This document shows positions 4,815 through 9,255 of a stretch of 64,000 nt of DNA, piece after piece (the stretch's first letter is position 1; each line of letters opens with the position of its first letter). The notes below the pieces were generated by a model. It saw nothing but the letters and a program-made list of their open reading frames with translations, was not told the DNA's origin and did not search any database. Both the position numbers and the translations under genes were made by a program. The stretch spans positions 1 through 64,000 of the forward strand of contig WJMJ01000128.1 in assembly GCA_014728035.1 (NCBI GenBank), read 5' to 3'. This DNA is from Promethearchaeota archaeon (GTDB lineage: Archaea; Asgardarchaeota; Thorarchaeia; Thorarchaeales; Thorarchaeaceae).

Positions 4815-6112
4815 TTGGGAAACCTCCCTTTTGTCGCAGAACCGTGGCTCGGAAGACCCTCACATTCTGACAGGATTTGTACATTATCCGACACCTTACG
4901 GAGTCCATTTTCAGTACACTCAACGATAGCATATGTTCTTACGAAATCAGCAACCGAGAGATGAGAATAGACATTTCCGTATCCTCCAGTTGGTAAGACG
5001 TGATTTACTCCTAAACAATAGTCACTAGCCGCTACGGGGGAATAACCACCAATCAAAACCAGACCTGCAGTCTTGATTTTATCCGCATCAAATCTGGCAT
5101 TAATTGTCATAATCTCCACATGTTCAGGAGCGTATTGATTAACAAAATTAAATCCCTCAACAAGATTTGAGCAAACATACACTAGACCATTATCATTCAA
5201 AGACTGACGGATTGTCCAAGATCGAGGAAGGTTCAAGGTTATCTCTTGCAATAGACGAATGACATTGTCAGCTAATGCGTCTGAATCAGTGACCAGAACT
5301 GCTTTGGCATCCGGATCGTGCTCTGCTTGAGATATTAAATCGAGAGCAATTAGTCTAGGATTAGCAGACTTATCCGCAATCACAAGAAGTTCGCTAGGCC
5401 CAGCTAGCATATCCACGGGCACATCGATAGATACCATTCGTTTTGCTGCAGTCACATATCGATTCCCAGGACCTACTATTTTATCTACTGGGTTTATTGA
5501 GGATGTACCATAAGCAAGTGCGGCAATTGCTTGAGCCCCACCAACCCGATAGATTTCTGTTGCTCCACAGATGTCAGCTGCAACAAGAGTGAGTGGATCT
5601 ATTTCACCATTTGGACCAGGAGGAGTACATATCACAACCCGCGATACCCCAGCAACAATAGCTGGTACAACGGACATCACAACAGAACTTGGATATGCAG
5701 CAGAACCACCTGGAACATAGCAACCTATGCTTCTCAGAGGAGCGATGGCATTTCTAATACCAACACCCTCGATTGTGATGCCATATTGTAATCGAGCCAA
5801 TCCAACTTCATAGTGATGGGCAAGTCGTTTTTTCGACTCGCAGATTGCATCCATGGCATCTTGATTAACTAATTTGTAAGCTAATTTGATTTCTGTATCC
5901 TTCACTCGAATACGTCCAGATATATCGACTTGATCATAGATCTTTGTGAACCGTAAGAGTGCCGTATCACCCTCACATCGAACTGATTCAACAATCTCAG
6001 ATACATCTGTATCCATCACATTGCGTCCTCGCACCGAACGAGGCCAACGTGAGTCCAGAATATATTGAGGTGTTTCATTGACCTTACAGATAGAGAGAGG
6101 CGGATTCTTCAT
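4811..6112 (-). CDS. hisD: Histidinol dehydrogenase
   Basis: GCYVPGG, GGAQAIAALAYG, KIVGPGNRYV, AGPSE, SQAEHD, APEH, NHVLPT. Confidence 0.98.
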   Translation of the reverse strand: MKNPPLSICKVNETPQYILDSRWPRSVRGRNVMDTDVSEIVESVRCEGDTALLRFTKIYDQVDISGRIRVKDTEIKLAYKLVNQDAMDAICESKKRLAHHYEVGLARLQYGITIEGVGIRNAIAPLRSIGCYVPGGSAAYPSSVVMSVVPAIVAGVSRVVICTPPGPNGEIDPLTLVAADICGATEIYRVGGAQAIAALAYGTSSINPVDKIVGPGNRYVTAAKRMVSIDVPVDMLAGPSELLVIADKSANPRLIALDLISQAEHDPDAKAVLVTDSDALADNVIRLLQEITLNLPRSWTIRQSLNDNGLVYVCSNLVEGFNFVNQYAPEHVEIMTINARFDADKIKTAGLVLIGGYSPVAASDYCLGVNHVLPTGGYGNVYSHLSVADFVRTYAIVECTENGLRKVSDNVQILSECEGLPSHGSATKGRFPK

Positions 6113-7095
6113 GATTCAACACCTCTCAGTGCCGAAACATCTTCCAATGATAGAACCTGTCGGGGTTCGTATACGACTAGCCCTTGAGCTAATTTTCGAA
6201 GTAATGGAATAAAATGCAGGTATTCACTTCTATCGATGACTGTATTCAATGCAACCCAATCATCATCTGATAGCGGGGATATAGTAGGTTTCTTGAGACC
6301 CGGAAGTTGCTCCAGAAGCACCTCAAGGTTGGACTTTTCCACATTCACAAATATGTGTAAACGTTTTCGCCCATCTATGACACCACCTAAAAGAGTGGCA
6401 ATGTCAAGAACCTTCTCTCGCTTTTGAGGTTCTGATAGAACTGATGAATTGCATATTAGAACAGCACTAGACTCCATCAGTACTTCAATAACCTTCAGTC
6501 CGTTCTGACGAAGAGAAGTTCCAGTATCCATTACTTCGACGATAGCATCTGCCGCAATAGGTGGTTTTGCTTCCGTTGCTCCAAATGAGAGATATACAGC
6601 AACCTTGTCATTCTCACCTTTTCTCCACCAAGGTGTGATAATCAGAGGTTCTTGGTTTCCAAAGAGTTCGTGATATGCAGCATTATTCTGAATTGCACGT
6701 GATGCAAGATTGGGATATTCTGTGGAGATTCGAAGAGTCCTTCTGTCATTTGCGAATGTACGGATTAGGTCCGATAGTGAGCAAATTTCAGACATGCAAT
6801 TCTGAATTGCAACAACAATTCGTACCTTAGAATATTCAAGATCTAATAGGGTTTCAACTTTCACGCCAGTTTCAGCTATCCAGTCAGCACCAGTGATGCC
6901 CACATCTTGAATCCCTTCAGCAACGTAGATGGGAATCTCCTGTGGGCGTAACACTCTCAGTTCAATATGGTGATCATTAATGGATGGTTGGTAGGTACGA
7001 GAACTACCGGAAATAGAATATCCTGCACGACTCATAGCTTTGAGTGTGTCATTCATCAAGTGCCCATTTGGAATAGCAAGTCTTACCTGATCCAT
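6109..7095 (-). CDS. hisG: ATP phosphoribosyltransferase, long form with C-terminal regulatory domain
   Basis: RPQEIPIYVAEG..DVGITGAD, SFGATEAKP, DTGTSLRQNGL, PGLKKPTISPL. Confidence 0.96.
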   Translation of the reverse strand: MDQVRLAIPNGHLMNDTLKAMSRAGYSISGSSRTYQPSINDHHIELRVLRPQEIPIYVAEGIQDVGITGADWIAETGVKVETLLDLEYSKVRIVVAIQNCMSEICSLSDLIRTFANDRRTLRISTEYPNLASRAIQNNAAYHELFGNQEPLIITPWWRKGENDKVAVYLSFGATEAKPPIAADAIVEVMDTGTSLRQNGLKVIEVLMESSAVLICNSSVLSEPQKREKVLDIATLLGGVIDGRKRLHIFVNVEKSNLEVLLEQLPGLKKPTISPLSDDDWVALNTVIDRSEYLHFIPLLRKLAQGLVVYEPRQVLSLEDVSALRGVES

Positions 7096-7237
7096 AATTT
7101 TTCACCTAGAATTAGTTTGGTTGAATTCATTTCATTCAATGAAAGAAATCGCTGAACAGAGAGTCCACTAGAATACAAAATTAGAGAACTGAAAAACAGC
7201 GAAAACGGAGAAACCACTAGAAGATTGATTTCAAGTG

Positions 7238-7294
7238 TTATCGTAGCGATGTTGTTACAGATGAACACAATCGCCTGTGAACGCAAGACCTCAT
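7238..7294 (-). CDS. Putative uORF (MRSCVHRRLCSSVTTSLR) in the hisG 5' region
   Basis: TTTATA at 7332-7337, GGTGA SD at 7303-7307, ATG 7294, TAA 7238; one His codon. Confidence 0.3.
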   Translation of the reverse strand: MRSCVHRRLCSSVTTSLR

Positions 7295-7390
7295 TGTGTG
7301 TTTCACCAAGAGTCTGGCCCGATTGTGTCAATATAAACATTGCTGCACAAAAAAGAACATCGGGCCCTCGTCACCCCTCCTTTTGTCACA

Positions 7391-7450
7391 CTAAGCTACT
7401 TGGCACCGCCAAGTGGCATGACGTTGCCATCGCCAATGATGAGTGTCCAT
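7391..7450 (-). CDS. Putative His/Trp-rich leader peptide MDTHHWRWQRHATWRCQVA
   Basis: GAAGGT SD-like element ~8 nt upstream; 3 His and 3 Trp in 19 codons; overlapping hairpins; downstream TTCTTTTTT. Confidence 0.6.
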   Translation of the reverse strand: MDTHHWRWQRHATWRCQVA

Positions 7451-7499
7451 ATTTTCAAACCTTCTTTCTATTTCTATGAAAACGGTGTTCGACCTATTT

Positions 7500-8858
7500 T
7501 TAAGCGGCCTGTTCTCTTGCAATACTAATATCTCCTTTTGGTAAAGATGCCTGCTCTGACGAAAGACTACCCGACAGTAGACTGTCATATGCACCCATGT
7601 CAAAATATCCATGACCTGAGAGATTGAGGACGATTGTTTCTTCTCTGTTGTTTCTCTTTGCATAGAGAGCACGGTCTATTGCTGCCTTGATTGCATGTGC
7701 TGATTCTGGAGCAGGAATAATTCCTTCACACCGTGCAAAGAGAACCCCTGCATTTAGTACCTCAATTTGGTCGTAAGCAATTGGCTTGATACATCCCTCA
7801 TTCACTAGAGCACTGATGGTAGGAGCCATTCCATGGTATCTCAGCCCTCCTGCGTGGATTTTTGGTGGTGTGAAGTTTTGACCAAGCGAATACATTTTCA
7901 GTTTTGGAGTAAGTCCTGCTGTATCCCCAAAATCATACTTGTATTCACCCTTTGTCAAGGTTGGACATGCTGTTGGTTCAACTGCAATATAGTCCACGTC
8001 ATCAAATCTTGAATCAGCTAGGAATGGAAACACCATTCCACCGAAGTTGCTACCACCACCTACACATCCAATTAAGGTGTCCACCTTTTCATCAACACTC
8101 TCAAGTTGTGCTATGACCTCTTGCCCAATGACAGTCTGATGCAATAGGACGTGGTTCAACACCGAGCCAAGCGTATACTTTGTATCCTCACGACTTAGGG
8201 TATCCTCAAGTGCCTCACTGATTGCTATACCAAGGGTTCCAGGATGATCTGGATTATCCTTCCGGATTTGGCGGCCAAACTCAGTGATGTCAGAGGGGCT
8301 TGGTACAATAGTAGCTCCAAAGGAGCGCATCAAGGTCCCACGATATCGCTTCTGCTCGTAGCTGATCTTGACCATATACACCATTGCTTCAATATCAAAT
8401 ACTGAGCAGGCTAAGGCAACCGCACTGCCCCATTGCCCAGCGCCAGTTTCAGTAGCCAGACGTTCAGTACCTTCCTTGGCTGCATAATATGCCTGAGCTA
8501 AAGCAGTATTCAACTTGTGACTTCCAGTCGGTGACACATCCTCACGCTTGAAATAAATCCGCGCAGGGGTCTTCAACCGTTCCTCAAGTCTTACAGCTCT
8601 CTGAAGCGGACTTGGTCGCCCAAATCGTATCAGGGCATCTCTAATCTCTGTGGGAATTTTTACAAGCTTCTCTTGAGTTGCTTCCTGCTTAACACACTCT
8701 TGTGCGAAAATTGCAGTAAGCACATCAGGACTAGCTGGTTCACCAGTTCCAGGATCTATAGGAGGAGCCAAGGGCTCGGATAGATACGGTACTATGTTGA
8801 CATAGTTTTTTGGAACATCTTCTATATCCAATATAATTCGATTCTTGTTTACACTCAT
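7500..8858 (-). CDS. trpB: Tryptophan synthase beta chain, TrpB2 type (start revised to MSVNKNR)
   Basis: [16 protein letters not shown] (PLP lysine), [41 protein letters not shown]; N-terminal extension typical of TrpB2. Confidence 0.95.
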
Positions 8859-9020
8859 GGATGTTACGTCCAATTTTTTGTGACATACGCCCCTTCGATG
8901 AATCGTGTGATACTGCAATCTGAGTGAATGAAAGATGCAACTCGCGAATTGGTTGATAAAAAGAGCAACTCTGAATGCAGTAATCGAGTGTCTGTATCAA
9001 TCGGACAACTGGCGAACTAA

Positions 9021-9077
9021 CTAGACGGGTCCTCGTGGACCCCAATGCCATTGGTAATGATACACTCTCGACACCAT
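9021..9077 (-). CDS. Putative aromatic/His-rich leader peptide MVSRVYHYQWHWGPRGPV
   Basis: TATATATA at 9118-9125, GAGGTG SD at 9081-9086, ATG 9077 (or GTG 9074), TAG 9021; YHYQWHW cluster followed by a GGGTCC-ACGA-GGACCC hairpin. Confidence 0.65.
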   Translation of the reverse strand: MVSRVYHYQWHWGPRGPV

Positions 9078-9117
9078 TAACACCTCGAAAGGGCTGCGTT
9101 GTGCGTTTGAAGACCCC

Positions 9118-9125
9118 TATATATA
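9118..9125 (-). promoter_or_regulatory. TATA box for the leader-trpB2 transcript
   Basis: TATATATA ~32 nt upstream of the leader SD, consistent with a start site near 9095. Confidence 0.5.
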
Positions 9126-9255
9126 CGTTACGCATTATTGTACATCAATGTTCATTTTTGTACATTATTTCATTTTTCTGATTGTGTTGCAAAATTCAAA
9201 CCAATGATTTAAAGAACGAAAAGGATTATGAATCTCTAATTGACGAGATAACATA

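Follow-up and report, generated by a model that had tools for sequence, protein, structure and literature searches.

In a 64,000-nucleotide stretch of DNA from a Promethearchaeota archaeon of the family Thorarchaeaceae (assembly GCA_014728035.1, contig WJMJ01000128.1, positions 1 to 64,000 of the forward strand; hereafter the window), the tryptophan synthesis gene trpB2 is preceded by a structured 5' leader of roughly 240 nucleotides (nt), which is present wherever this family has an orthologous trpB2. At its start the leader carries a small upstream open reading frame, uORF1, which, judging by its sequence features, is apparently a conserved and translated leader open reading frame (ORF), and I consider it fairly probable that the ribosome senses the Trp codon of uORF1 and in this way controls trpB2. 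An earlier note on the same DNA had proposed that two small ORFs rich in His and Trp codons, uORF1 and a second one between trpB2 and the his operon (uORF2), together form an attenuator of the bacterial trpL/hisL kind. The annotation of the locus is corrected here: the trpB2 leader is real, a second real leader, that of his, lies at another position, and the remaining candidate is spurious. The parts of the trpB2 leader, in the order in which they would be met by the polymerase and with coordinates of the window, are as follows.

9129 to 9164, minus strand: array of TGTACA-type boxes with 10-bp phasing, a presumed transcription-factor operator
9118 to 9125, minus strand: trpB2 TATA box; the transcript start is predicted near 9095 from the usual archaeal TATA-to-start spacing
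9085 to 9094, minus strand: 5' strand of helix P1, GCCCTTTCGA, at the very 5' terminus of the leader and overlapping GAGGTG (9086-9081); predicted fold
9021 to 9077, minus strand: leader ORF uORF1, 18 codons, read from the sequence, with the stop codon TAG at 9023-9021
9027 to 9042, minus strand: hairpin P4, GGGTCC-ACGA-GGACCC, which caps the P2-P3 domain and begins 5 nt after the conserved Trp codon
8983 to 9013, minus strand: 3' strands of helices P3 and P2, as paired on a structure-naive alignment
8958 to 8972, minus strand: small, genus-restricted hairpin (AGAG-TTG-CTCT) and T5 run, surrounded by a pyrimidine-rich tract
8889 to 8898, minus strand: 3' strand of P1, TCGAAGGGGC, about 30 nt ahead of the trpB2 start; predicted fold
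7500 to 8858, minus strand: trpB2, encoding a stand-alone TrpB-like pyridoxal phosphate (PLP) enzyme of 452 amino acids (Pfam PALP, NCBIfam)

Among the 86 genomes of the family, a TrpB2 search found trpB2 in 59, and a covariance model of the leader (R1, 85 nt, threshold E <= 0.01) matched 58. Five of these matches, all from genus g4, fall within a coding sequence and were discarded as false, which leaves 53 true ones (G and g numbers are genome and genus labels, G000 being the source genome and G001 a sister species of the same genus). The leader is found in 53 of the 59 genomes with trpB2, and a true match occurs in none of the 27 genomes that have no trpB2. The six genomes with the gene and no R1 match comprise three of genus g12, in which a diverged leader retains all parts, two in which the locus is cut by the end of a contig, and one in which the gene is a paralog (49% identical). 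All 52 of the readable genes downstream of the leader are TrpB2 orthologs, with 61-96% identity, and trpB2 mostly begins 135-165 nt past the uORF stop when its start is taken as the first in-frame Met. Where trpB2 is duplicated (G014 and G086), each copy keeps its own leader. BLAST searches aligned the uORF1 block, but not its flanks, in other genera, and a scan of 185,579 species genomes with the exact pattern returned nine loci, all on contigs labelled as metagenome-assembled genomes of Thorarchaeota or Promethearchaeota, of which all seven with readable downstream DNA are situated upstream of trpB2.

Outside the family the leader was not observed. R1 matched none of the 124 genomes that represented 26 other families of the phylum, and six loci from five other Asgard families have no convincing Trp-codon leader ahead of trpB2. 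Weak model matches (loci L193-L201) were rejected, as they lie inside coding sequence or are without promoter and start-codon features. The conservation of a uORF in orthologous regions, which the earlier note had made a test of its proposal, is borne out for uORF1 across the Thorarchaeota family, and not for uORF2. One locus of another Asgard family (L221, in G027) has a GC hairpin and long T-runs some 60-110 nt ahead of trpB2, which could be the terminator of the neighbouring gene or an unrelated control element.

uORF1 (9077-9021, minus strand) translates as MVSRVYHYQWHWGPRGPV followed by the stop codon. It would be the first feature of the trpB2 mRNA, because the TATA box at 9125-9118 puts the predicted transcript start near 9095; its ATG lies about 18 nt past that start, and its ribosome-binding site, GAGGTG at 9086-9081, is a 6-nt match to the complement of the organism's own 16S 3' end (GGATCACCTCCT). 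Of its two Trp codons, the one at 9050-9048, within the block C-CAA-TGG, is conserved, and the one at 9044-9042 gives way in other leaders to a codon for L, S, M, R, T or K. In all 48 distinct leaders a start codon is located 21, 24 or 27 nt before the conserved Trp codon and in frame with it, and each of these alternative positions (-21, -24, -27) has its own ribosome-binding site. Within the 36 nt ahead of the TGG, 50 ATG trinucleotides are in frame versus 8 and 3 in the other two frames, and the two sequences without an ATG have an in-frame GTG instead. The canonical TGG has been lost in one of about 57 copies, a paralog in which it reads TGT, and there the Trp codon two codons downstream remains. 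Within the source genome, 12 of 1132 eligible genes, including trpB2 and hisG, combine a TATA box, a ribosome-binding site, a small ORF and a leader of 80-260 nt.

What is constant in the trpB2 leaders are the phased TGTACA boxes, the TATA box, the ribosome-binding site, the start codon, C-CAA-TGG and a GC hairpin, and the peptides themselves are highly variable (for instance MVSRVYHYQWHWGPRGPV, MIRVCLGQWLWGPVGPV, MSVRYCQWITGRERPT and MSVRPYQWGRGLKRPLQLVL). The residues after the Trp follow the RNA stem and not a peptide motif (GPRGPV, GRERPT, RPHGRV, APRGAV), those encoded in the stem switch with covariation from Pro to Arg, Ala or Thr, and the stop codon falls in the hairpin loop, past the stem, or as many as ten codons further along. 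Since the encoded residues change wherever the stem covaries, the peptide tail is a passenger, and it is the Trp codon and the RNA that are preserved. The sequences of both small ORFs, at 9077-9021 and 7450-7391, read exactly as the earlier note gave them, and the Shine-Dalgarno element that it placed before each is well supported for uORF1 and amounts to a weak AAGGT for uORF2. Its emphasis on His and Trp enrichment does not hold as a conserved property, since the peptides vary and a single Trp codon is kept in uORF1, and the suggested sensing of both amino acids falls with it, as the His codons of uORF1 are not conserved. In the source genome 0.19% of the 20,104 small ORFs (38 cases) have at least six His and Trp residues, and 2.6% have at least four, which makes uORF2, with its six, unusual in composition but not singular.

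Independent folds of diverse leaders converge on one plan. Its closing helix, P1, would join the extreme 5' end of the leader to a segment that mostly lies 10-45 nt ahead of the trpB2 start. The predicted duplex has a mean energy of -19.2 kcal/mol for cognate strands versus -12.6 kcal/mol for non-cognate strands from unrelated leaders and -11.0 kcal/mol for shuffled ones, and the strands are clade-specific (GCCCTTTCGA with TCGAAGGGGC here, CACCTTCGA with TCGAAGGTG elsewhere), so that the modelled P1 appears to be a covarying helix which would hide the uORF's own ribosome-binding site. Inside it, codons 2-6 of the uORF (about 9072-9058) pair with a block some 25 nt past the stop (8999-8983) to form P2, and the Trp codon plus a C pairs with GCCA at 9013-9010, which contains a conserved CCA, to form P3, with a flanking pair that alternates between C:G and A:U. 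Covariation is clearest in P4, where one pair is found as UA 20 times, CG 17 times and UG 16 times, others change from GC to CG or UA, and the stem occurs as GGCTCC/GGAGCC, GCGTCC/GGACGC, GGGCC/GGCCC and GGTCCTTC/GAAGGACC; the closing pairs GGG/CCC are nearly invariant at the nucleotide level. On the structure-naive alignment 71.7% of the cells of P2-P4 are paired, versus 36-44% with slid partners, and the covariation score of 0.243 (0.08-0.12 when slid) was reached by none of 500 shuffles, for a structure that was itself derived from the same sequences. RNAalifold on the MAFFT alignment gave P4 only, with P2 and P3 derived from single-sequence folds. Rfam, including T-box and Trp_leader (RF00513), gave no match at E <= 10 between positions 6500 and 9800. 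Directly after the 3' strand of P1, 27 nt before trpB2, there is an out-of-frame ATG (8884-8886, minus strand) with a good ribosome-binding site, AAGGGG.

From these parts the following course may be proposed. A ribosome would load on uORF1 co-transcriptionally, ahead of the closing of P1; its binding site would be free only until the 3' strand of P1 has been transcribed, which suits a single co-transcriptional reading of the leader. When charged tRNA-Trp is scarce, the ribosome would dwell at the Trp codon, further retarded by the P4 hairpin, and by dwelling there could keep P2-P3-P4 open, so that the output of trpB2 would rise. Candidate output steps are premature or factor-dependent termination, translation of trpB2, mRNA stability, or a kinetic switch that is invisible at equilibrium.

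A number of observations weigh against sensing by a ribosome. T runs of at least 5 between the uORF and trpB2 are present in 9 of 48 leaders, versus about 21% of shuffles, and because this equals the shuffled expectation there is no conserved oligo-U terminator. For the strand that a ribosome would free, the pairing energies were -18.5 kcal/mol with cognate, -18.7 with non-cognate and -18.9 with shuffled partners, which shows no conserved alternative pairing, in a search that was crude and leaves room for a kinetic switch. Refolding at equilibrium with a ribosome on the Trp codon leaves P1 and the access to the trpB2 ribosome-binding site unchanged, and with the ribosome at either the Trp codon or the stop no systematic effect was seen; in any case this site of trpB2 is sequestered only inconsistently, with a mean unpaired probability of 0.54. 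Bacterial trp leaders known so far carry two or more Trp codons, and a single one is conserved here. The -1 frame is as open around the Trp codon as frame 0 (a stop in 2 of 49 sequences each), for which reason openness of the frame alone is no proof of translation. C-CAA-TGG is almost fixed, including the third codon position and CAA instead of CAG, and this points to a constraint at the RNA level beyond coding. The derivation of the P2-P4 structure from the sequences on which it was scored belongs among these points as well. The bacterial trpL/hisL layout of the earlier note, with neither a conserved U-run terminator nor a terminator/antiterminator switch to be found, cannot be upheld. The hairpins and T-runs it described are present here (9042-9027 with a T5 run at 8962-8958, and uORF2 with a T6 run at 7354-7349), without the oligo-U being conserved.

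Several of these observations would fit a structured RNA that is read by a ligand, by uncharged tRNA-Trp or by an RNA-binding protein, the small ORF being tolerated and not the sensor. A multi-helix junction closed by P1 beside the trpB2 ribosome-binding site is riboswitch-like, C-CAA-TGG and the GGG/CCC of P4 are nearly invariant with synonymous positions included, the UGG is paired to an internal CCA much like a codon to an anticodon, and no terminator switch was found for a ribosome to act upon. I nevertheless consider this explanation unlikely: the start codons shift among three positions yet stay in frame, each with a ribosome-binding site, a Trp codon has been retained even where one paralog lost the canonical TGG, and the RNA resembles no Rfam family at the E value given above, T-box and Trp_leader included. 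It stays alive because the near-fixation of C-CAA-TGG, synonymous positions included, is not explained by coding. Less compatible with the data is a TnaC-like arrest peptide, where free tryptophan would stall the complex of ribosome and nascent chain at or near the stop. The Trp residue is conserved, and many versions end with Pro, one residue and the stop, or with Gly-Pro-stop in two genomes. However, the residues after the Trp follow the RNA stem without any peptide motif, the stop varies in position from the hairpin loop to 10 codons beyond, and induction by high tryptophan would presumably run counter to the role of a gene that makes it, which renders an arrest peptide very improbable.

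Alternatively, control could be purely transcriptional, exerted by a factor that binds the TGTACA boxes, with a leader that tunes stability or translation efficiency and senses nothing. The array in the window consists of TGTACA (9164-9159), TGAACA (9154-9149), TGTACA (9144-9139) and TGCGTA (9134-9129), and adjoins a TATA box (TTTATAWR/CTTATAAG) that is kept in all aligned leaders, about 41-45 nt ahead of the uORF start. Nearly all leaders of the family carry such an array ahead of the TATA box, and in the source genome the pattern of array plus TATA box is nearly unique to trpB2, as it matches only this promoter and one unrelated locus. TGTACA corresponds to the TRP box to which TrpY of Methanothermobacter binds. 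The literature confirms TrpY and its TRP boxes without giving the sequence of the box, and names TrpY and Tar as the regulators of trp genes known from archaea (PMC6737238). Yet a purely transcriptional explanation leaves the invariant in-frame Trp codon, the ribosome-binding site, the start codon and 240 nt of covarying structure unexplained, and as both layers of control are able to coexist, I find it quite unlikely that the boxes are all there is. Sensing of the Trp codon by a ribosome on uORF1 is the explanation I prefer. In the upstream parts of loci L140-L192, too, there are three to four TGTACA-type boxes, which keep an exact 10-bp phase with the TATA box of trpB2. A scan for a regulon with double TGTACA boxes gave trpB2 plus unrelated sites only, and a scan for bacterial-type promoters and terminators gave nothing that exceeds shuffles.

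The second small ORF of the earlier note presents a different picture. The features between trpB2 and the his operon are the following.

7391 to 7450, minus strand: uORF2, 19 codons with 3 His and 3 Trp, in the 3' untranslated region (UTR) of trpB2
7349 to 7354, minus strand: T6 run, the likely trpB2 terminator; its equivalent in genus g7 is a clear GC hairpin with a U-run
7330 to 7337, minus strand: his TATA box, conserved in 5 genera and preceded in relatives by a TGTACA box
7238 to 7294, minus strand: his leader ORF MRSCVHRRLCSSVTTSLR, with ribosome-binding site GGTGA at 7307-7303 and an invariant His codon CAC at 7279-7277
7206 to 7218, minus strand: anti-ribosome-binding-site element AGTGGTTTCTCCG, which can pair with the region of the his leader ORF's ribosome-binding site
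6109 to 7095, minus strand: hisG (Pfam HisG and HisG_C), first gene of hisGDCBHAFI

uORF2 (7450-7391, minus strand) translates as MDTHHWRWQRHATWRCQVA followed by a stop, and is located between the trpB2 stop codon and the T6 run, ahead of the conserved his TATA box at 7337-7330. The earlier note had it directly upstream of the his genes, on their mRNA; by its position before the his TATA box it instead belongs to the 3' UTR of trpB2. It is kept solely in the same-genus sister species, with two amino-acid changes. Genus g7 shares the trpB2-his synteny but lacks this ORF, and has only a hairpin with a U-run terminator at this place. As a his-operon leader uORF2 was rejected, being upstream of the his promoter and limited to one genus, and it is probably a chance or genus-specific ORF. 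A 17-nt motif common to both intergenic regions, in the P4 region and in uORF2, was also rejected, since its score was attained in 164 of 1000 shuffles and its sequence is degraded in the sister species. Within uORF2, at 7398-7414 (minus strand), there is a 6-bp hairpin, CTTGGC-GGT-GCCAAG, of which the sister species keeps 5 bp with an altered loop; it may be a structure of the trpB2 3' UTR rather than coding.

Read-through into hisG-I, whose control the earlier note had proposed, is not indicated, since the his genes are served by a promoter of their own and by another conserved leader ORF, at 7294-7238. This ORF, with the pattern [M/V]-R-x-C-[V/L]-H-(x)-[R/W]-R-L-[C/R]-S-S, occurs in 15 sequences that represent 11 genera, and in all 14 with readable downstream DNA it is situated 124-145 nt ahead of hisG. 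It varies in its start (ATG or GTG), in its His codon (CAT or CAC) and by an in-frame 3-nt deletion in this genus. A helix between its ribosome-binding site and a conserved block, GTTTCTCC, is predicted in most sequences, with weak covariation (cognate -13.9 versus non-cognate -12.6 kcal/mol). A run of consecutive His codons, as in hisL, is not found in the his leader ORF, which has one invariant His codon and is with this no more than plausible as a His sensor. Leader-peptide control, the core of the original proposal, survives for trpB2, with a conserved Trp-codon ORF in a covarying RNA, and is abandoned for his by way of uORF2. In the his leader, at 7259-7286 (minus strand) and at loci L210, L212 and L213, the stretch TTGCGTTCATC is directly repeated (about 11 nt, copies 19 nt apart), the repeat being perfect in several relatives. 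The His codon is read in frame in the first copy, whereas the second copy is out of frame. The repeat could serve alternative pairing or as protein sites. The TGTACA ahead of the his TATA box in relatives is a lone one, degenerate in the source genome, and a scan of genome contigs with a 14-base his-leader pattern gave chance matches in unrelated bacteria only.

Taken with the trpB2 leader, this leads me to suggest, tentatively, that in Thorarchaeota the ribosome serves as an amino-acid sensor on leader ORFs with one critical codon, for Trp or for His, that stands before a hairpin, in a leader that folds back over its own ribosome-binding site and has an output step other than the bacterial terminator hairpin.

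Regarding gene content, trpB2 (8858-7500) is followed on the same strand by hisG-D-C-B-H-A-F-I (7095-719), the his genes being assigned by Pfam. The trpB2 product scores 665 bits against NCBIfam NF009057 (TrpB-like PLP enzyme) and is also above the cut-off of TIGR01415, which together with Pfam agrees with the gene context given earlier. Neither TrpA (PF00290) nor the chorismate-binding family of TrpE (PF00425) has a match in the source genome, which is 98% complete, while both families were matched in all 14 control genomes. TrpB2 is on this ground the sole Trp-forming enzyme found, and going by its gene content the organism seems to make tryptophan solely from indole (and serine) through TrpB2. 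Between one and three in-frame stops interrupt some of the trpB2 matches (G077, G042, G017 and G014; G017 has TGA, TAG and TAA), and these may be pseudogenes or assembly errors.

No archaeal example of transcription attenuation or antitermination was known as of 2021 (PMC8448881), and my search of the literature found no report of leader-peptide sensing in archaea or Asgard, in agreement with the earlier note, according to which leader-peptide attenuation is not established in archaea. If a ribosome is indeed the sensor, the trpB2 leader would be a first for the domain with respect to attenuation-type control, and of a new design. A conserved Trp-codon ORF before the sole Trp-forming gene moreover offers a test, open to mutation, of control by coupled translation in the archaeal lineage closest to eukaryotes.

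Among known systems, the T-box riboswitch differs in that the UGG of the trpB2 leader is inside a helix and not in a specifier loop, and in that no Rfam match was obtained. TnaC of the tna operon shares a leader peptide with one critical Trp, and its output is thought to act by factor-dependent termination and not by an intrinsic terminator. Unlike in TnaC, the peptide after the Trp is not conserved in the trpB2 leader, conserved residues at a fixed spacing from the stop (Trp, Asp and a C-terminal Pro) are not observed, and the regulated gene makes tryptophan, whereas that of TnaC degrades it. In the translational attenuation of ermC and cat a paused ribosome on a short ORF holds a hairpin open, as it would here, where P4 is within reach; there, however, the downstream ribosome-binding site becomes accessible through the freed strand, and that of trpB2 is unchanged by the modelled stall. 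The repression of Trp genes by TrpY through TRP boxes in Methanothermobacter (PMC6737238) is control at the level of DNA and does not account for a transcribed leader. Its likeness to the trpB2 locus lies in TGTACA-type boxes that overlap the promoter of a Trp gene. The closest likeness is to trpL of Escherichia coli (RF00513) and the actinobacterial trp leaders (PMC1262725), in which a short ORF with Trp codons and a ribosome-binding site is likewise embedded in a folded RNA just ahead of a gene for Trp formation, and has its initiation region later hidden by pairing. The trpB2 leader departs from trpL in its archaeal host, in one conserved Trp codon in place of a tandem run, in having neither a conserved hairpin with U-run terminator nor a detectable 2:3 antiterminator nor an Rfam match, and in the long-range helix that closes around all of its 240 nt. 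Because the bacterial terminator design is absent, the output step could reveal a new route from the speed of a ribosome to gene expression, and the output of this one-codon leader may differ from the bacterial terminator hairpin by acting through factor-dependent termination or mRNA stability.

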